NCBI GenBank assembly: GCA_944380265.1
Contig: CALWGY010000002.1
Coordinates: 3,556 to 67,555, forward strand
DNA: 64,000 nucleotides
Origin: an uncultured Clostridia bacterium
GTDB lineage: Bacteria; Bacillota; Clostridia; Christensenellales; UBA1242
Direction: 5' to 3'
In this document: one piece after another, positions 223 to 8,291 of the stretch
How positions within the stretch are numbered: position 1 is the stretch's first letter
Layout: each line of letters begins with the position of its first letter
Notes under the pieces: generated by a model
What the model saw: the letters and a program-made list of their open reading frames with translations, nothing else
What the model was told of the DNA's origin: nothing
Databases searched by the model: none
Position numbers and translations under genes: made by a program

Positions 223-286
223 GTAAAATTTTATTGTTTATAATACATTAATGAATTTTTTATGCTATACTGTATTTGAGGTTTAT

Positions 287-679
287 ATGAAAGAAATTAA
301 GGTAGTTGCAGGAATTATTGAAAATAATGGTAAAATTCTTTGTATGCAAAGAGATAAAGGAAAGTATGATTATGTCTCTTTTAAGTGGGAATTCCCCGGT
401 GGCAAAATTGAAGAGGGTGAAACTAATGAAGAAGCACTTAAAAGAGAATTGTTAGAAGAAATGGATTTAGACGTTATTGTTGGAATTCATTTTTGTGATG
501 TTGAATATACATACCCAGATTTTAAACTTACCATGTTTTGCTACAAATGCAATACAAAGGATCTTGATTTTAAATTAAATGTGCATAAAGATTACAAATG
601 GCTAGAAAAATCTGAATTAAATATTATTGACTGGGCTCCTGCGGACATGATAATTGTAAAGAAGCTAATGGAGGAGTAA
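287..679 (+). CDS. NUDIX hydrolase (MutT-like nucleoside triphosphate pyrophosphohydrolase)
   Basis: ORF 251..679 contains the Nudix box GGKIEEGETNEEALKRELLEEMDL. ATG 287 is preferred because an SD-like tgaggt lies 5 nt upstream. The stop is 2 nt before the next ORF. Confidence 0.8.
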   Translation: MKEIKVVAGIIENNGKILCMQRDKGKYDYVSFKWEFPGGKIEEGETNEEALKRELLEEMDLDVIVGIHFCDVEYTYPDFKLTMFCYKCNTKDLDFKLNVHKDYKWLEKSELNIIDWAPADMIIVKKLMEE

Positions 680-681
680 TA

Positions 682-3600
682 ATGAATTTTGGACTTTATG
701 AGCAAATTATTAATAAAGCTTTAAATGATATTGATGAAAATGATATTCAAGTTGAAAAAAGAAAAATAGATAAAGAAAATGTGCCTAGAATATTATCTAA
801 TTATTTGTCTGAAGTTTTAGAAAAAGGTTTAAAAGATTTATCTGAGAATAATTACACAATAGAAGAACAGTTAAATTTTTGCAATTATATTATTAATAAA
901 ATAAAAGATGAAACTAAAGATGAATACTATTCAAGTCAACTAATTTCGAAAGATGCCGAAATGTTATATTCTTTAATGAATAAAAAGAATAGTATAAGAG
1001 TATTAAAAACGGATTATCCAATAAGACCAAACTATTCTATTGCAGAGCCTTTTGTGTTTACTGGTGCAAACACTGAAATTCAATTGCTTAGTGAATTAAA
1101 AAAAGAAATTTCTAGTTGTGATGAAATAGATTTTATCGTTTCATTTATCAAATGGAGTGGAATAGTAAGGCTTTTAGATGAATTAAAAGAATTTACCGAC
1201 AATGGTGGTAAATTAAGAATTATAACAACGACTTATACTGGAGCAACTGAAGCAAAAGCCATTGAACGATTATGCGAACTAAACAATACTGAGATAAAAA
1301 TATCATATAATACAAAACAAACGCGACTGCATGCTAAAAGCTATATATTTAAAAGAAAAACTGGTTTTTCTACCGCTTATGTTGGTTCTTCTAATATTTC
1401 AAGTGCAGCTCTTACAAGCGGAACCGAATGGAATGTTAAAGTTACCGAAAAAGAGATGAAAGATGTTTATGATAAAATATGTGGAACCTTTGAAGTATAT
1501 TGGAACAGTGAAGAATTTGAAAAATATAATAAAGAAGATAATGAAAAATTAAGAAACAATTTATATCAAGAAAAGTCTCCAAAATCATTTAATTTAGAAG
1601 AATACAATTTTGATATTATTCCATATCCTTATCAAGAAAGAGTTCTTGAAAAACTTAGAGTAGAAAGAGAAAATCGCGACAATTTTAGAAACTTAGTAGT
1701 TGCAGCTACAGGAACAGGCAAAACGGTTATGTCTGCATTTGACTTTAAACGTTATCTACAATCACAACATGGAAGAAAAGTCAAATTTTTATTTGTAGCT
1801 CATAGAGAAGAAATTTTAAAACAAAGCTTAAAATGTTTCAGAGGGATTTTAAGAGATAATAATTTTGGAGAATTAATGGTTGGTGGAATTTTACCCAAAA
1901 GTATTGATAATTTGTTTGTATCAATTCAAACATTTAATTCTAAAAAGTTATATGAAAAATTAGCACCTGATTTTTATGATTATATTATTGTTGATGAATT
2001 TCATCACGCGGCAGCAGAAGGATATCAAAAGTTATTATCACATTTTAAACCAAAAATTTTACTCGGACTTACTGCAACACCAGAAAGAATGGACGGAAAA
2101 GATATTTTACAATATTTTGATGGTAAAATATCTGCTGAGATTAGACTTCCAGAGGCAATCGATAGAGGTTTACTTGTACCATTTACTTATTTTGGTATTT
2201 CAGATGAAATAGATTTAAGTTCTGTAAAATGGACTAGAGGTGGATATGATATACAAGAACTTAGCAATGTTTTATCATTTAATAAAGCAAGAGCAATGAC
2301 TGTTTTAAAATCATTAAATAAATACCTTAATGATATTGATACAATAAAAGGATTAGGGTTTTGTGTTAGTCAGCAGCATGCTCAATTTATGGCAAAAGTG
2401 TTTAATGACGCTGGAATACCATCTATCGAACTTGATAGCAACTCTTCAAAAGAATTAAGAGAAAATGTTAAAGATAAATTAGTAAAGGGCGAAATAAAGT
2501 TTATATTTGTTGTGGATTTATATAATGAAGGTGTTGATATTCCAGAAGTAAATACGGTTTTATTTTTAAGACCAACAGATAGTTTAACAGTATTTTTACA
2601 ACAATTAGGTAGAGGTTTAAGACTCTGTAAAGGAAAGGATTCTTTAACGGTTTTAGATTACGTTGGACAAGCTAATAAAAAGTATAGATATGCCGATAAA
2701 TATCAAGCTCTTCTAGGTGTTAATGCAATGTCTGTTTCTACCGAAATAAAAAATGGATTTCCAAATCTTCCAAAGGGCTGTTTTATAACATTGGAAAAGA
2801 AAGCCCAAGAATATGTATTAAGCAACATTAAGCAATCGTTTAATAATAAAGCAAACTTTATTGAAAAATTTAAAAATTTTGAAAGTGACAGTGGACTCGT
2901 CCTAAATTATAAAAACTTTTTTGAGTATTATAATATAAATCCGGCTAAATTATATAATATAGGATTATCTTTCACTTGGCTACAAAATTCAAATGTTATT
3001 GATGATGATAAATTTTTAACATTTTTATCTAGAAGTACACAAATAAATTCTTCTGCGTGGATAAAACGACTGTTAGATTTACTTCCAAAAATAAAAAATG
3101 CTAAACATATTGAATTAACAGAATATGATAAACGTTGTCTTTTAATGTTTCATTATACTTTTGAAACTCAAAAATCCCCAAAAGATTTAGGATATAATAA
3201 CGTCATTGAAAGTATAGAACAGATTGTAAATTCAGCATACTATGAAGAAATAATAGAACTATTAAATTATAACTTTTCAAAAATAGACATAGTTAATAGC
3301 CAGTTAATAAAATTTAGTAATTGTCCTTTGGAATTGTATTCTGCATATTCTAATGCGCAAATACTTGCTGGTTTTGGTGAATATACAGAAAGTAGATATT
3401 TTCCACTAACATCAGGTGTGTGGTATATAGAAAATGAAAAAACAGATATATTTTTTGTAACCTTAAACAAATCTGAAAAACATTATGCACCTGAAGTTAA
3501 ATATGAAGATTATTCCATTAACGATGAATTATTCCATTGGCAGTCACAAAATAAAACGGATATAAATTCGCCAACGGGACAGCGTTATATAAATCATAAA

Positions 3601-3798
3601 AAAACTAACAATAATATATTATTGTGTGTTAGAAATTATAGAGCGAATGAATATGGTAATACAGAAAATTATTCTATTTTAGGTTATTGTGATTATGTTT
3701 CACACGAAGGATCGAGACCTATTTCAATTATATGGAAAATGCATAACAAAATACCTGCAAAGTTTATTGAAAAAACTAGTAAATTGATGGTTAATTAA
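682..3798 (+). CDS. HKD (PLD-family) nuclease fused to an SF2 DEAD/DEAH-type helicase, with a DUF3427-like C-terminal region
   Basis: 1038 aa. Single HKD motif: LHAKSYIF...VGSSNIS. Helicase motifs: AATGTGKT (I), DEFHH (II), TATPER (III), QQLGRGLR (VI). The C-terminal ~350 aa (..HWQSQNKT..) resembles DUF3427 as I recall it. GGAGGAG SD lies just upstream, inside the NUDIX 3' end. Confidence 0.8.
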   Translation: MNFGLYEQIINKALNDIDENDIQVEKRKIDKENVPRILSNYLSEVLEKGLKDLSENNYTIEEQLNFCNYIINKIKDETKDEYYSSQLISKDAEMLYSLMNKKNSIRVLKTDYPIRPNYSIAEPFVFTGANTEIQLLSELKKEISSCDEIDFIVSFIKWSGIVRLLDELKEFTDNGGKLRIITTTYTGATEAKAIERLCELNNTEIKISYNTKQTRLHAKSYIFKRKTGFSTAYVGSSNISSAALTSGTEWNVKVTEKEMKDVYDKICGTFEVYWNSEEFEKYNKEDNEKLRNNLYQEKSPKSFNLEEYNFDIIPYPYQERVLEKLRVERENRDNFRNLVVAATGTGKTVMSAFDFKRYLQSQHGRKVKFLFVAHREEILKQSLKCFRGILRDNNFGELMVGGILPKSIDNLFVSIQTFNSKKLYEKLAPDFYDYIIVDEFHHAAAEGYQKLLSHFKPKILLGLTATPERMDGKDILQYFDGKISAEIRLPEAIDRGLLVPFTYFGISDEIDLSSVKWTRGGYDIQELSNVLSFNKARAMTVLKSLNKYLNDIDTIKGLGFCVSQQHAQFMAKVFNDAGIPSIELDSNSSKELRENVKDKLVKGEIKFIFVVDLYNEGVDIPEVNTVLFLRPTDSLTVFLQQLGRGLRLCKGKDSLTVLDYVGQANKKYRYADKYQALLGVNAMSVSTEIKNGFPNLPKGCFITLEKKAQEYVLSNIKQSFNNKANFIEKFKNFESDSGLVLNYKNFFEYYNINPAKLYNIGLSFTWLQNSNVIDDDKFLTFLSRSTQINSSAWIKRLLDLLPKIKNAKHIELTEYDKRCLLMFHYTFETQKSPKDLGYNNVIESIEQIVNSAYYEEIIELLNYNFSKIDIVNSQLIKFSNCPLELYSAYSNAQILAGFGEYTESRYFPLTSGVWYIENEKTDIFFVTLNKSEKHYAPEVKYEDYSINDELFHWQSQNKTDINSPTGQRYINHKKTNNNILLCVRNYRANEYGNTENYSILGYCDYVSHEGSRPISIIWKMHNKIPAKFIEKTSKLMVN

Positions 3799-3837
3799 AA
3801 TAAGTGATAATAAATTATTAAATAAAGCATAACATCT

Positions 3838-3871
3838 AAAAACCGTAATGAAATACTATTACGGTTTTTTT
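3838..3871 (+). terminator. intrinsic terminator after the nuclease-helicase gene
   Basis: 11-bp perfect stem aaaaccgtaat / attacggtttt, 8-nt loop, then a T-run. Confidence 0.65.
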
Positions 3872-4408
3872 GTACAAGAAAAGAATAGAGCAATAGACTC
3901 TATTCTAAATGCAATGGAAAAAGGAATAATAACATCGTCAACACAAGAAAGACTTATGAAACTTGAAAACGAAAAAGCAATACTTGAAGATAAAGTTGAG
4001 TATGAACAAAACCATCAAATAAAACCACTAGAAAAAGAACAAATTGTGGATTTTTTAAAAGTATATGCAAGAAAACAGTTTGATAACAAAACAGATAAAA
4101 ACGAGTTCTTTAACAATTTTATTTTGAAAGTGTTACTTTATGACGACAAAATTACAATAGTTTACAATACAAGTTTAAACCCAGCAGAAGAAAAATATAG
4201 CAGTCCAAATGATAATGATGATAACAATGACAATAGTAACAATGGAACGACAATTTATAAGAAAGAAATTGAGATTTCAGACGATGAAAATAAGGACGAA
4301 GCGTCCTTGCGTAAACTAAAAAAATTGCCGTTTGAGTTCAAACGACAATTGTTTGGCGGAGAGTTAGGGATTCGAAACATAACTAATATTAAAAAAACAA
4401 CGAAATAA
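3848..4408 (+). pseudogene. relic of a large serine recombinase gene (C-terminal tail only)
   Basis: EKNRAIDSILNAMEKGIITSSTQERLMKLENEKAILEDKV...NNFILKVLLYDDKITIVYN matches the conserved C-terminal coiled-coil tail of large serine recombinases. There is no catalytic N-terminal domain. The nominal start lies inside the preceding terminator hairpin, and the 3' end reads through the attL core. Confidence 0.5.
4352..4376. repeat. attL core: 25-bp copy of the tRNA-Ser 3' end
   Basis: tttggcggagagttagggattcgaa is identical to 23072..23096. Only the last 22 nt of the tRNA plus 3 nt downstream are present here. Confidence 0.85.
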
Positions 4409-4426
4409 AGGCAATTTCTAATTTTT

Positions 4427-4447
4427 ATTCTACTCACATTCTACTCA
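4427..4447 (+). promoter_or_regulatory. putative arm-type recombinase binding sites (P' arm): ATTCTACTCA x2 at 11-bp period
   Basis: attctactca c attctactca lies about 50 bp from the att core. The same doublet occurs at 12989..13009 and, as attctactca a attctactcg, at 22966..22986 in the opposite arm. Confidence 0.4.
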
Positions 4448-4455
4448 ATAAAATC

Positions 4456-4490
4456 AAAAAACAAGGGTAAATTTTAACCCTTGTTTTTTT
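4456..4490 (-). terminator. bidirectional intrinsic terminator ending the leftward prophage operon
   Basis: Stem aaaaaacaagggt / acccttgtttttt with an 8-nt loop, flanked by A/T runs on both sides. The duplicate is at 13018..13052. Confidence 0.6.
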
Positions 4491-4494
4491 AAAT

Positions 4495-4770
4495 TTACAA
4501 CCACAATTTAAAGCACGAAAAAACACTCCAAACGTTTAAACCAAGTAATAAAATTGAAAATGCTAAGTCTATATAATTAAAGTTTACACTGCTTTTTATT
4601 GTTAATGTAACACTTGATATAATGACCATAAAAGCAAGTATTAACGCAATTATTCCATAAATCAAAAAATTTGTCCAAACATCTATTTTATAACTTAACC
4701 ATAGAGAAACAATAGTTAAAACTAATAAAAAGATATATGTAAAAACTCTATTTAAAATATTATCATTCAT
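4495..4770 (-). CDS. small three-TM membrane protein (prophage)
   Basis: 91 aa with three hydrophobic segments. Last gene of the leftward operon. Confidence 0.6.
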   Translation of the reverse strand: MNDNILNRVFTYIFLLVLTIVSLWLSYKIDVWTNFLIYGIIALILAFMVIISSVTLTIKSSVNFNYIDLAFSILLLGLNVWSVFSCFKLWL

Positions 4771-4778
4771 AAAATCAC

Positions 4779-5852
4779 CTACGCAATATGTGAGTGTTTA
4801 TACATTTTTAATGAAACATTTCCGCCAACAAAAATACCGCCAAATGTATTTTCACCATCACCACTTAAATATTCCCAACGATAAGAACCAGAAATTAAAA
4901 ATTCAATATCATCATCATCGATAATTGTTCCATAATCTACCAAACGAGTTCCTAACAATGTTATGCCATCAACATCATAAAAACTAACTAAACATTTTTC
5001 AATTTCATAAACAGCATAAAAAGTTGTATCATCATTAATTTGAACATCTGACAAATTATCAATTATATCAACATTGTTTAAAGACCAGCCTTTAAATATA
5101 TAACCATCTTTTGTTGGTGGAATTACATTTTCATTTAAAGTTTTTCCTTTTAACAAATCAAAATGTTTAAACTCTTCATTATCAACAATAAATTTTACGC
5201 AATTAAAATTTTCTAACACATCATCTTCATTAATAGGAATATCTTTAACAGGCTTAATTTCAATTTTAAAACCATTGTTATTAAAGTAATCATTCCAATA
5301 ATTAACGGCTTTTGCTCCGCCAGTTGTTGTGATATTTAATCTTGTTGATTGTTTATAAAAAACTAATTTAATATTTAAAGTATCTTTAATTAATTCTGAA
5401 TAATTATCATCATAAAAAACATATGTATAATTAACATCAACAAAATCAATTGAAGAATTAATAATATTTGTTGGAGTATCATTAACTAAAATTATATAAC
5501 TTGTATTTTTGCTTAATTCCAATGCTTCATTTTTAACAATTGTTAAATCATATTTATTTTCTTCCGCAGTTGACTTTAAAACAAGATTATTTAATTTAAA
5601 AGTCATTTCGTTAACTTTAATATCTGGTTTAATAACAGAAGATATTACACCATAAACACCACCACTTGCACTATAATATTTATTAATTTCTATACCAGCA
5701 AGAAAAGTAACAAATATGTACAAAACACCTATACAAGTAAACAAAATATATCTAAAAGTTGTAGAGCGAATAAAAATAATTAATAATATTAAAATTATTA
5801 CAAGTAACAAAATATCATAAATTATTGAAAAATCAAATAACCATTTAAACAT
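4779..5852 (-). CDS. membrane-anchored protein with a C-terminal Listeria-Bacteroides (Flg_new-type) repeat; candidate adsorption protein
   Basis: ORF 4779..5885. Start at MFKWLF (5852) is preferred because an SD-like gggggtgg lies upstream and it removes the overlap with the upstream gene. N-terminal TM helices are present. PPTKDGYIFKGWSLNN...TTFYAVYE fits the GYxFxGW repeat. Confidence 0.6.
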   Translation of the reverse strand: MFKWLFDFSIIYDILLLVIILILLIIFIRSTTFRYILFTCIGVLYIFVTFLAGIEINKYYSASGGVYGVISSVIKPDIKVNEMTFKLNNLVLKSTAEENKYDLTIVKNEALELSKNTSYIILVNDTPTNIINSSIDFVDVNYTYVFYDDNYSELIKDTLNIKLVFYKQSTRLNITTTGGAKAVNYWNDYFNNNGFKIEIKPVKDIPINEDDVLENFNCVKFIVDNEEFKHFDLLKGKTLNENVIPPTKDGYIFKGWSLNNVDIIDNLSDVQINDDTTFYAVYEIEKCLVSFYDVDGITLLGTRLVDYGTIIDDDDIEFLISGSYRWEYLSGDGENTFGGIFVGGNVSLKMYKHSHIA

Positions 5853-7086
5853 TTTCGCCACCCCCAACATCAATTGAAAAACCATTTAAAATTTCATTAT
5901 AAAGTTGAAAACCACAATAAGTTTTTTCATTTGGTGCATTTACATTAATGTTATGTTTTAAAAACTCTTCATAATCTATATAAACATTCAATTTAATTAC
6001 ATCTTTATAATTAGAATATTTTGATAAAAAAGAGTCATCTAAAATTAAATCATATGTTCCATCAACATTGTCAATTAATTTAAAATTATTAGTGTTAACA
6101 TCAACTATTGAACGACCAATAAAATAATTATCTTCAACAGAATTTTCAACAAGATAATTAGGTGATGCATGCAACAAACCAAACAAACTATCGGAAGAAC
6201 TTTTTGCACCATCTTCACTAATTTTTATTGATATAGCATAATAATTCTTAACATGGTTAACCACTTTTGTACTATCTTCCATTGGCATTTCATCAAAAAC
6301 ACCATCGCCTTTATATTCGTAATAATCAAATAAATCGGCAAAATCAAAAACAATCATATTGTTAGTTCCATATTTTAGAGTTCCACAAGATTTTTTCAAC
6401 AAAAAACTTAAATAATGAACATCAAAATATGAATAATATGATGCATAATTTTGAACGCCCCATAACACGTTAAAATCGTAACCATCTTCAAAATCAGCGA
6501 CATGTGATAAATCATTCATAGGTGTGTTTAGACCCTTAAATTTCATACCATAAACTTCATTACCAATTTCAATTACAAAAAAATCATCTATTGTTATTTC
6601 ATTAGTTGAATAATATGAAATTCCAGAAATATTATCAACAGTATAACAATAACTAGTACCATTTACACCAGGACTAAAAGACCCCCAGTAAGAATAGTAA
6701 TCTTTTGCGTTATACCAACCACCAACATGTTTAATTTTTTCGCCCTTTACTGCATTGTTATAATGATAAGCATAATCAACAAAACCATTAACATCTTTTG
6801 AAATATATTGAAAACCTTTTGAAGAAATAGTTGTTTTGTTTTGGTCCGACAAACTATTTAATTTTATTTCAAACATTTCAAACCCATTTTTATTTTTGTT
6901 GGTATAATAATTAAATTCAATAATTGGTTTAACAACAGAACCATCTTCTGATGTTTGCAAATCTACATAAAAAGCATTATTAACGTTTTTTTCAGGTGCA
7001 AAAAATAAAATGTACAAATACCAAAAATTAACAATTAGTGTTAATGCAAAAGTGCAAATTCCAATTATAATTAATGTTTTTTTCAT
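5845..7086 (-). CDS. secreted or membrane-anchored prophage protein, function unknown
   Basis: 413 aa. N-terminal hydrophobic signal/anchor MKKTLIIIGICTFALTLIV. No recognisable motif. Confidence 0.6.
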   Translation of the reverse strand: MKKTLIIIGICTFALTLIVNFWYLYILFFAPEKNVNNAFYVDLQTSEDGSVVKPIIEFNYYTNKNKNGFEMFEIKLNSLSDQNKTTISSKGFQYISKDVNGFVDYAYHYNNAVKGEKIKHVGGWYNAKDYYSYWGSFSPGVNGTSYCYTVDNISGISYYSTNEITIDDFFVIEIGNEVYGMKFKGLNTPMNDLSHVADFEDGYDFNVLWGVQNYASYYSYFDVHYLSFLLKKSCGTLKYGTNNMIVFDFADLFDYYEYKGDGVFDEMPMEDSTKVVNHVKNYYAISIKISEDGAKSSSDSLFGLLHASPNYLVENSVEDNYFIGRSIVDVNTNNFKLIDNVDGTYDLILDDSFLSKYSNYKDVIKLNVYIDYEEFLKHNINVNAPNEKTYCGFQLYNEILNGFSIDVGGGENV

Positions 7087-7094
7087 ATAACCCC

Positions 7095-8069
7095 CTAAAA
7101 AATGTTATCAATTTCTTCTTTTAACATTTTTTCTTCTTCTTTATTTAATTTAATAAAATCAGAACGATACAAATCTTTATAATTTTCACGTTCAACATAA
7201 GTTCCAGTTTTATCAATTCGCAATATTGTTTTAATGCGTTCGTTAAACGCATTATAAATTATAGGTTTATTTCTTTGCTCATCTTTATAAATTTCATTTA
7301 ATGGCAAATTTGAAATTATATAAACTTTTGTATAACATGCAACTTTATTCGCATAACGTGCAGGTAACATAAAAGGGTAAACATCTAAAAGTCTATTCAT
7401 AAGTTCAATTTTAAATTGTCCACTAAATTCATCTAACACCAATATGTCTTCATTTTTGTAATTATCAAAAGTAGAATTGTTATAAACACTTGCATGATAA
7501 AATTTGCCAAAACCATATTTATCATAAACATAACGAGTTTTACCAGTTCGTGGTGGTCCATAAATAAAAGTAACATCAACATCACGATTTTTAATTAAAA
7601 ATTCAGAACTTAAATAATCTGTTCTAATCTTTTCAATTTTTGTTAAATTACTTAAATAAAGTTTAGGGAATAATCTAGCAAGTTCTAAATCAGTTGCACC
7701 ATTTTGAACTAGTTCAATAAAATTAGATATATCAGTCCTTGCTCGTTCTTCCGCAAAAGTTCCCAATTCATACGGACCACTTATTCTTGTTTCAGATTTT
7801 GTGCAATAATCACGTGCTTGTGCATTAGTTCCTTGAACTGGTTCAATATGTGCCGTTGGAAAGTAATTTTTTAATGTACTAAATCTTTTACCAACGTTAA
7901 ATATTAAAAATACTTGAAAATGTATTATTTCTTTTTCTTCACCTTTTTCACGTTGGAAAGCACAATATTTAAAGTGTTCTAATTTTTGAACATAATCAGA
8001 AAACTCATCATCACTTTCAGATGGATTATTTATTGTTAAAAACCATCTTCTTTTCATTGTATCAGTCAT
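7095..8069 (-). CDS. rep: rolling-circle replication initiator: HUH endonuclease + SF3 helicase (CRESS-DNA-virus-like Rep)
   Basis: Motif I WFLTINNP, motif II HFQVF, motif III YCTKSE, Walker A GPPRTGKT, Walker B ILVLDEF, motif C YIISN, all in the canonical order within 324 aa. Confidence 0.85.
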   Translation of the reverse strand: MTDTMKRRWFLTINNPSESDDEFSDYVQKLEHFKYCAFQREKGEEKEIIHFQVFLIFNVGKRFSTLKNYFPTAHIEPVQGTNAQARDYCTKSETRISGPYELGTFAEERARTDISNFIELVQNGATDLELARLFPKLYLSNLTKIEKIRTDYLSSEFLIKNRDVDVTFIYGPPRTGKTRYVYDKYGFGKFYHASVYNNSTFDNYKNEDILVLDEFSGQFKIELMNRLLDVYPFMLPARYANKVACYTKVYIISNLPLNEIYKDEQRNKPIIYNAFNERIKTILRIDKTGTYVERENYKDLYRSDFIKLNKEEEKMLKEEIDNIF

Positions 8070-8079
8070 AATTCACCCT

Positions 8080-8159
8080 ATGTTACACAGTAAAATAGCA
8101 TATGTTACAATTTTTTTTATTAAAAAATGGCTTAATATAGTGCTATGTTACGATGTTAC
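8080..8159 (-). repeat. four Rep-proximal iterons (GTAACAT on the rep-sense strand)
   Basis: ATGTTAC at 8080, 8102, 8145 and 8153 on the + strand. They lie between the origin hairpin and the rep start codon. The duplicate is at 16642..16721. Confidence 0.6.
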
Positions 8160-8199
8160 GCAGTTGGCTAAAAGGTAATACTATCTTTTAGCCAACTGC
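8160..8199 (-). promoter_or_regulatory. putative rolling-circle origin hairpin with a TAGTATTAC loop
   Basis: Perfect 15-bp stem gcagttggctaaaag / cttttagccaactgc. The 10-nt loop reads ATAGTATTAC on the - (rep-sense) strand. Predicted nick TAGTATT/AC between 8177 and 8176. Confidence 0.7.
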
Positions 8200-8227
8200 T
8201 AATTTTATAAAGTTTCAATTTGTAACC

Positions 8228-8260
8228 GCGGAACGGCACGCAGGCTTGTTGCCGTTCCGC
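8228..8260 (+). other. GC-rich hairpin (terminator-like, or a candidate complementary-strand origin or packaging element)
   Basis: 11-bp stem gcggaacggca / tgccgttccgc with an 11-nt loop, followed by ttgtttttt. It is strikingly GC-rich for this DNA. The duplicate is at 16790..16822. Confidence 0.4.
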
Positions 8261-8291
8261 TTGTTTTTTGCCTTGCAAGGTCAATGGTCAG

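Follow-up and report, generated by a model that had tools for sequence, protein, structure and literature searches.

A putative circovirus-type rolling-circle origin upstream of rep in an integrated, Zot-encoding element of gut Clostridia

A 64,000-nucleotide stretch of contig CALWGY010000002.1 from an uncultured Clostridia bacterium (hereafter the window) contains an integrated element in which a perfect hairpin lies immediately upstream of rep, the gene for a replication initiator protein (Rep). This locus raises the question of whether the hairpin is the site where Rep initiates replication, as in circoviruses, or whether it has another role. Our preferred answer, to which we assign a probability of roughly 85% from the sequence evidence, is that the hairpin acts as the Rep-nicked double-strand (plus-strand) origin for rolling-circle replication of an integrated, Zot-encoding inovirus-like element. 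The initiator of this putative origin is best explained as a Rep of circovirus type from the p4M-like (pCRESS) group. A first-pass annotation of the window had proposed a circovirus-type origin at this position, and our analysis supported the proposal: the stem-loop, the nonanucleotide, the adjoining repeats and a Rep combining a histidine-hydrophobic-histidine (HUH) endonuclease, in its HUQ form, with a superfamily 3 (SF3) helicase are all present. Feature coordinates are collected in Table 1.

On re-reading of the - strand, the perfect stem, the 10-nt loop with its nonanucleotide, and the four GTAACAT repeats between the hairpin and the rep ATG were all found at exactly the positions first given for them. 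Read on this strand, the 5' arm GCAGTTGGCTAAAAG (8199..8185) and the 3' arm CTTTTAGCCAACTGC (8174..8160) enclose the loop ATAGTATTAC (8184..8175), and the proximal iterons begin at the base directly after the 3' arm. The loop exposes a nonanucleotide of the type NANTATTAC, which has the form (T/A)AGTATTAC in circoviruses and is TAGTATTAC here. As counted over the whole window, TAGTATTAC occurs only twice, each time inside an origin hairpin, one for each copy of a large repeat described below. GTAACAT was observed 25 times versus 13.4 times expected, a number that none of 100 shuffles reached, and eight of the 25 occurrences make up the two origin clusters. When a 201-nt region around the origin was folded as single-stranded DNA, the energy was -40.9 kcal/mol versus -19.4 +/- 3.0 kcal/mol for shuffled sequences (z = -7.1), and none of 200 shuffles folded as well. 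First-order Markov simulations indicated that only ~0.7 perfect hairpins of at least 12 bp would be expected per 64 kb. The remaining long hairpins of the window all showed the A-run/T-run form of terminators; the origin hairpin does not have this form. Copies of the distal iterons were also present in four related loci (L003, L005, L012 and L020).

The Rep protein carries motif I (FLTINN), motif II (HFQ, the HUQ form), motif III (YCTK, with Tyr88) and a Walker A motif (GPPRTGKT). Pfam searches matched Viral_Rep (PF02407) at 5.5e-11 and RNA_helicase (PF00910) at 4.6e-7, the two domains that circovirus-type Reps combine. Across 25 aligned homologues, eight positions were invariant, namely H50 and Q52 of motif II, Y88 and K91 of motif III (YCxK), G176 and K177 of Walker A, E214 of Walker B, and N254 of motif C. 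The profile of this family of 25 homologues aligned with the full-length Rep of porcine circovirus 2 (PCV2; PDB 7lar_A). The match had an E-value of 1.8e-34, spanned residues 7-292 and brought motifs I-III and Walker A into register. Because the catalytic positions are invariant and the profile aligns with full-length PCV2 Rep, the initiator is, as judged from its sequence, intact and of circovirus type. The family comprised 1,052 proteins at E <= 1e-10, with no source-given name among the 120 listed. RepA of plasmid p4M was the sole plasmid match (32% identity, 3e-35), and the Rep motifs were similar to those of the pCRESS2 sequences printed in the supplement of Kazlauskas 2019 (PMC6668415). 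A scan of IMG/VR for Rep returned only distant matches (at most 34% identity, mostly on 2-3 kb contigs) and no free circular copy of the element.

The origin layout was then compared across relatives. Scanning one genome per species gave 40 loci, all from metagenome-assembled genomes of gut Clostridia (Christensenellales, Lachnospiraceae, Acutalibacteraceae and unclassified Clostridia; rabbit, deer, mouse and human). Bajarodino viruses were added from a phage collection; these are circular faecal genomes of 5.7-10 kb deposited as Inoviridae. As observed on the rep strand, 40 of the 41 related loci had, ahead of rep, a hairpin with a loop of the nonanucleotide type and then two tandem iterons, as in the window. 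The loop end read (T/A)A(G/C/T)T(A/G)TTAC across these loci, and a script found loops ending in TATTAC with two tandem iterons directly after the hairpin in 39 of the 41. Locus L013 kept the layout with a variant loop, TAAGTGTTAC, and the one locus left over, L042, was only a 33-residue fragment match. Two bajarodino genomes are GC-rich and encode Reps only 35-37% identical, yet they showed CCTAGTATTAC loops followed by GTCGCA or TGTCGA iterons. In the Bifidobacterium plasmid p4M, GTGGGCGG-CATAGTGTTAC-CCGCCCAC is followed by GTACCAGTACCA, ~50 nt before repA. Thus, a loss of the hairpin and nonanucleotide from homologous elements, which had been named in advance as the result that would overturn the origin reading, was not what we observed in 40 of 41 loci and p4M. 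At closer range, the 372-nt origin region was 99.5-100% identical in eight contigs from other samples, whereas the immunity and structural modules differed.

As a background control, each TATTAC site in the 40 genome loci (548 in total) was scored for its best flanking perfect stem. Stems of at most 5 bp were found at 508 of the 548 sites, and all 25 sites with a stem of at least 10 bp (10-19 bp) were rep-upstream hairpins. Among 31 non-redundant origins, 27 had a perfect stem of at least 7 bp, and these 27 comprised 23 distinct inner-stem sequences. All four Watson-Crick pair types were found at stem positions 2-7, whereas the loop nonamer was essentially fixed. Alignment of the 31 origins with MAFFT followed by RNAalifold recovered only an outer helix, CAGTT/AACTG, with compensatory changes in four of its five pairs, because the inner stems and loops differ in length and were misaligned. 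The per-sequence stem search and the 548-site control were therefore used in place of this alignment. The iterons were lineage-specific (GTAACA, GTCGCA, GACGCA, GGAACA, GATACA and GTACCA), while their number, tandem order and position at the foot of the 3' arm were constant across lineages. Such variation at a fixed position is what would be expected of a specificity determinant co-evolving with Rep.

Compared with known eukaryotic systems, the locus resembled the origins of porcine circovirus and of the Circoviridae and Nanoviridae, in which a stem-loop carries (T/A)AGTATTAC next to hexamer repeats with rep downstream. The loop nonanucleotide of the window is identical to the circovirus and nanovirus consensus. 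As in circoviruses, the tandem repeats start where the 3' arm of the stem ends, on the side facing rep, and Rep has motifs I, II (HUQ) and III together with the SF3 helicase. The iterons differ in detail; those of the window are 7-mers (GTAACAT) with a period of 8, next to a 15-bp stem, whereas circovirus iterons are CGGCAG hexamers. Furthermore, the host is a bacterium, the replicon measures 8.5-10 kb rather than 1.7-2 kb, and the element, which has its own integrase, is inserted at a tRNA gene and codes for a Zot-type ATPase rather than a jelly-roll capsid protein. The window Rep is ~30% identical to Reps on small (2-3 kb) viral contigs that resemble circular Rep-encoding single-stranded (CRESS) DNA viruses.

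The element itself is an island bounded by a 25-bp exact direct repeat, which is the 3' end of tRNA-Ser(tga). From left to right, it consists of the left attachment site (attL), an 8,033-bp body, a 529-bp spacer, an identical second body, an 88-aa open reading frame (ORF), the XRE repressor gene XRE107, the integrase gene and tRNA-Ser. About 0.8 kb upstream of the origin lies the gene for a P-loop ATPase, whose homologues occupy the same position in most related loci. Pfam Zot was matched by 16 of 20 members of this ATPase family, and the family profile matched PDB 2r2a at 2.4e-14, the structure used as the inovirus Zot template in Tisza 2020 (PMC7000223). Using hhalign, the family gave 97.5% probability against an annotated bajarodino inovirus Zot and 3.5% against the FtsK/SpoIIIE protein of p4M. 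Profile methods were needed for this assignment, since pairwise BLASTP between the window ATPase and the bajarodino Zot was weak (E = 0.001). Because the attachment repeats, the integrase and the Zot-type ATPase family occur together, the element is best described, as far as its gene content indicates, as an integrative prophage of the inovirus-like kind whose replication module is of circovirus type.

Genomes of a similar kind are on record. Two circular genomes, ctbe30 and ctbc27, were reported to combine CRESS Reps with inovirus genes, and similar prophages were noted (Tisza 2020, PMC7000223). Like these and the bajarodino genomes (GenBank PQ006121-PQ006184), the window element combines Zot with a Viral_Rep/SF3 Rep on a genome of 6-10 kb and comes from a gut or faecal source. 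The hairpin, TAGTATTAC and the iteron layout are the same in the window as in the two bajarodino genomes examined. However, Rep identity between the window and these inovirus-like genomes is only 33-37%, and they are GC-rich free circles, whereas the window element is an integrase-bearing prophage of 26% GC in an apparent tandem.

If the hairpin is the origin, replication would proceed as follows. Rep would bind the GTAACAT iterons at the foot of the 3' arm, and extrusion of the inverted repeat would expose TAGTATTAC as single-stranded loop DNA. Tyr88 of motif III (YCTK) would then cut TAGTATT/AC between 8177 and 8176 on the - strand and stay on the 5' end, after which the 3'-OH would prime leading-strand synthesis by a host polymerase while the SF3 helicase domain unwinds the duplex. 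At the regenerated nonanucleotide, strand transfer by Rep would free a circular single strand corresponding to the - strand of the window. This is the coding-sense strand for nearly all genes of the element, and, by analogy with filamentous phages, the released strand would be the coding-sense one. The distal iterons may overlap the rep promoter; because they lie over this likely promoter, Rep probably also represses its own gene.

The first-pass annotation had also reported a second copy of the origin at 16642..16761. This copy was confirmed and lies within a 100% identical repeat with a period of 8,562 bp; it is part of an 8.56-kb tandem or a circle junction, not an independent second origin, and the whole interval 16738..8177 lies inside the repeat. 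The spacer between the two bodies shared only ~74% identity with its counterpart to the right of copy 2 but matched positions 1611..2139 of L050 at 100%; the matched segment is the immunity region of a prophage that another sample carries in single copy. The XRE gene of the spacer breaks off at GGGGGATT and runs into the final bases of the att core, so that the junction with copy 2 at 12929 reads GGGGGATT/CGAA. The structure looks like the outcome of a microhomology deletion in a heteroimmune sibling phage, in which the integrase and the C-terminus of the repressor were lost. Short-read assemblies of two other samples gave two contigs, L051 and L052 (8,070 and 8,048 bp), that exactly cover the 8,033-bp body and extend only a few bases beyond it, which suggests that the body is repeated, or stands in two contexts, in those samples too. 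A terminal-repeat test on 8-10 kb contigs with the same Rep found none that was demonstrably circular; those of 8.05-8.07 kb corresponded to the repeated body.

Because the two identical origins point the same way at a spacing of 8,562 bp, replication from one to the other, starting at 16745 and stopping at 8183, could by analogy release an integrase-less circle of 8,562 nt without excision. Davis and Waldor (2000) and Moyer, Kimsey and Waldor (2001) reportedly described such rolling-circle production from integrated CTXphi/RS1 arrays in Vibrio cholerae. As in CTXphi arrays, two directly repeated origins are found one genome apart in a chromosomal, Zot-encoding phage of the filamentous type, and neighbouring units differ in the repressor (immunity) region, as in CTXphi/RS1. 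In contrast to CTXphi, the Rep belongs to an unrelated family, and integration depends on the element's own tyrosine integrase at a tRNA gene rather than on XerCD at dif. Moreover, origin-to-origin production is suggested here by sequence geometry, and the tandem may be an assembly path. We therefore regard it as a tentative and rather doubtful idea that the array is a working CTXphi-type platform in a Gram-positive host, in which an 8,562-nt hybrid genome is made through the truncated-repressor junction. If it were true, the hybrid would be a deletion derivative of a heteroimmune sibling phage that depends on the neighbouring integrase-positive prophage, and a circovirus-type Rep-origin module would drive satellite-like propagation of filamentous phages in gut Clostridia.

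Several observations count against the reading of the hairpin as a rolling-circle origin of an inovirus-like prophage. The nick position was placed by analogy alone, with circoviruses, nanoviruses and geminiviruses. The tandem comes from a metagenome scaffold (ENA ERZ28614714 scaffold_64) and could equally be an assembler path through a single prophage and a free 8,562-bp circle, although the junction at 12929 requires a tandem or circular form either way. Single-copy prophages were found in other samples (L045, L046, L049 and L050); thus, tandem copies are not required for maintenance. The window ATPase alone fell below the Pfam Zot threshold and gave only a Zot-like match to PHROG 197 (1.2e-6). 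In addition, a hydrophobic-ORF scan of the element did not reveal a convincing gene for the small hydrophobic major coat protein expected of inovirus-like phages (Tubulavirales); AT-rich noise dominated the scan, and only a 91-aa multi-pass membrane protein (4495..4770) stood out. The filamentous-virion assignment therefore follows from the Zot hallmark gene and the annotated relatives. Pfam and PHROG scans of the other ORFs of the element showed only the Zot-like match, an XRE helix-turn-helix and a Listeria-Bacteroides repeat.

The remaining observation on this side concerns Rfam. The covariance model RF03070 (ssNA-helicase) aligned end-to-end over 8146..8194 with 40.1 bits (E = 3e-6), which does not reach its gathering score of 41.5 bits, and at the gathering threshold none of 15 related loci matched. 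The near miss arises because the iteron and stem letters differ while the architecture is the same: like the window, the RF03070 consensus has a hairpin (~11 bp), a loop UAGUAUUA(C) and then a tandem repeat UGUAGCAUGUAGCA, with the iteron GTAGCA in place of GTAACA. Since the 15 relatives lack a match, the Rfam model is narrower than the origin family. RF03070 is labelled a small RNA (sRNA) in Rfam, without an assigned function. Weinberg et al. (2017) are said to have described this ssNA-helicase candidate upstream of helicase genes and to have proposed that it possibly acts as single-stranded DNA. An explicit statement that the RF03070 motif is the nick-site origin of p4M-like Reps was not found in the literature searched.

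Among the alternatives, the one that survives best accepts nicking of the loop by Rep and holds that it is the replication or transfer origin of an integrated plasmid, not of a virus, so that single-stranded DNA is not packaged. The RepA of p4M has long been known as circovirus-Rep-like (PMC2702318), and Kazlauskas 2019 (PMC6668415) defined a p4M-like cluster, pCRESS1-3, in Bacillota and Actinomycetota. Most of its members were shown to sit in tRNA genes, inserted there by tyrosine integrases. They were classed as integrated plasmids lacking homologues of known virion proteins; one pCRESS2 neighbourhood lists a Zot. The window element shares the tRNA gene, the tyrosine integrase and the flanking direct repeats with these elements. 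Term searches of the main text and the available supplementary files of that study (PMC6668415) turned up no passage on origin hairpins or nonanucleotides. The true plasmid p4M (L053) has the same origin layout upstream of rep, and an FtsK/SpoIIIE-domain ATPase gene (1897..2673) stands directly upstream of its origin and rep, in the slot taken by Zot in the Clostridia elements. A plasmid would also accord with the lack of a clear coat-protein gene. However, pCRESS elements were described with FtsK-like ATPases, whereas the ATPase family of the window is Zot-type by its Pfam and hhalign matches, and hhalign detected no relation between the p4M FtsK and the Zot-type ATPase. Related complete circular genomes of 5.7-10 kb from faecal samples were deposited as Inoviridae, inovirus coat-like genes were found in CRESS-Rep genomes (Tisza 2020, PMC7000223), and no genes for relaxase coupling or type IV secretion were seen in the element. 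We consider a plasmid origin unlikely.

Still less probable is the view that the hairpin and repeats form only a Rep operator or autoregulatory site, with the true nick elsewhere in the element. The iterons do stand between the hairpin and the rep start, and the distal pair overlaps TTGTAA and TGTGTAACAT, which resemble a -35 and an extended -10 motif when read by eye and were not flagged when the sequence was scanned. An operator role is compatible with an origin role, and the two are generally known to coincide in geminiviruses. TAGTATTAC is found nowhere else in the element, and nothing would oblige a purely regulatory hairpin to preserve the circovirus nick-site nonamer to the letter across Reps of only 35-60% identity while its stem drifts. 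Both facts argue for the Rep-nicked origin over an operator alone.

The possibility that the motif is a structured RNA, such as a 5' leader for rep translation, or a terminator of the upstream Zot operon ranks slightly lower again and is very improbable. Rfam classes the motif as an RNA gene (ssNA-helicase RNA), the hairpin is located between the upstream operon and rep, and on the + strand it is followed by TAATTTTATA and was scored as terminator-like. On the rep-sense strand, however, iterons and no T-run follow the stem, no real + strand gene runs into the hairpin, and its form differs from that of the other long hairpins noted above. The combination of a conserved loop, drifting stems and tandem direct repeats marks an HUH nick site rather than a terminator. 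Lastly, a chance palindrome, which might be suspected in AT-rich DNA (window 25-35% GC) rich in short repeats, has a negligible probability given the folding z-score and the expected hairpin number, and was refuted by the comparative data, in which the layout recurs in 40 of 41 loci including high-GC genomes.

The first-pass annotation had called this origin the most striking observation in the window, which overstated its novelty: both the kind of element and the DNA motif are on record (PMC6668415, PMC7000223 and RF03070). The origin is conserved and real, but bacterial circovirus-like Reps, CRESS-Rep inovirus-like genomes and the DNA motif have already been catalogued. What is gained is a function for an orphan Rfam motif, since p4M-like Rep replicons appear to use ssNA-helicase as their plus-strand origin; this is a minor advance in annotation and does not define a new kind of system. 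Not only Rep but the entire cognate origin (nonanucleotide, hairpin and iteron placement) is common to the bacterial elements and to circoviruses and nanoviruses, and the plasmid-to-virus scenario for CRESS-DNA viruses is therefore strengthened. If the array is indeed a CTXphi-type production platform, the Rep-origin pair, rather than Rep alone, would be the unit common to bacterial elements and eukaryotic CRESS-DNA viruses. The locus also offers a bacterial system for the genetic dissection of CRESS Rep-origin recognition. The practical gain is modest and consists of annotating the origin and strand polarity in a large prophage family of gut Clostridia (>1,000 Rep homologues).

Table 1. Positions of the origin, rep and other features of the integrated element in the window.
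Feature	Position	Strand	Remarks
Origin hairpin, copy 1	8160..8199	-	perfect 15-bp stem, 10-nt loop ATAGTATTAC
Nonanucleotide TAGTATTAC in loop	8175..8183	-	predicted Rep nick site
Proximal tandem iterons, GTAACAT-C-GTAACAT, period 8	8145..8159 (8159-8153, 8151-8145)	-	putative Rep binding site
Distal iterons, GTAACAT	8108-8102 and 8086-8080	-	just 5' of rep ribosome-binding site
rep, 324 aa	7095..8069 (ATG at 8069)	-	HUH-type endonuclease and SF3 helicase
Origin hairpin, copy 2	16722..16761	-	identical to copy 1; nonanucleotide 16737..16745
Iterons, copy 2	16715-16721, 16707-16713, 16664-16670, 16642-16648	-	identical to copy 1
rep, copy 2	15657..16631	-	identical to copy 1
Second hairpin, GC-rich	8228..8260 (copy 2: 16790..16822)	-	11-bp stem GCGGAACGGCA/TGCCGTTCCGC, 11-nt loop; 28 nt upstream of origin hairpin
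Zot-type (inovirus pI-like) P-loop ATPase, 281 aa, copy 1	8862..9707	-	family-level matches
Element body, copy 1, 8,033 bp	4367..12399		100% identical to copy 2; period 8,562 bp
Single-copy spacer, 529 bp	12400..12928		87-aa ORF and truncated XRE repressor gene (68 aa)
Element body, copy 2	12929..20961		100% identical to copy 1
attL, 25-bp copy of tRNA-Ser 3' end	4352..4376		exact repeat
XRE repressor (XRE107)	21311..21634		ahead of integrase, near tRNA
Tyrosine integrase, 440 aa	21671..22993	+	Pfam Phage_integrase in collection annotation
attR core	23072..23096		within tRNA-Ser(tga), 23074..23161, - strand

The intergenic region upstream of the origin contained further structure. The second hairpin listed in Table 1 sits in very AT-rich DNA, and L013 (9328..9364), L007 and L009 have comparable hairpins a short way upstream of their origins. 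Candidate roles for the hairpin are those of a packaging signal, an origin for the complementary strand or a terminator for the Zot operon. The intergenic remainder (8289..8440) is densely packed on the rep strand with short TGTGGTAA-like and TTTCCAC/TTTCCAG-like repeats, which form several imperfect inverted pairs. This array could be an operator or a complementary-strand origin region.

Two genes follow rep (4779..7086), encoding proteins of 413 and 368 aa, the latter with N-terminal membrane helices and a Listeria-Bacteroides repeat domain. In L045 and L046, which have identical Rep and origin, a single 656-aa gene (10984..12954) replaces this pair, and more distant relatives carry homologues of the two genes upstream of Zot, not downstream of rep. 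The pair looks like an exchangeable module for adsorption or host range. Beyond attL, the chromosomal flank also varies among samples with the same prophage. In the window, this flank (251..4408) contains a NUDIX gene, a 1,038-aa gene (RE_NgoFVII/PLD nuclease, helicase and DUF3427) and a 186-aa fragment, whereas HATPase_c_3, DNA methylase, AIPR, DUF4420 and Z1 genes occupy it in L045..L048. The region beside the tRNA-Ser attachment site thus looks like a variable hotspot of defence genes.

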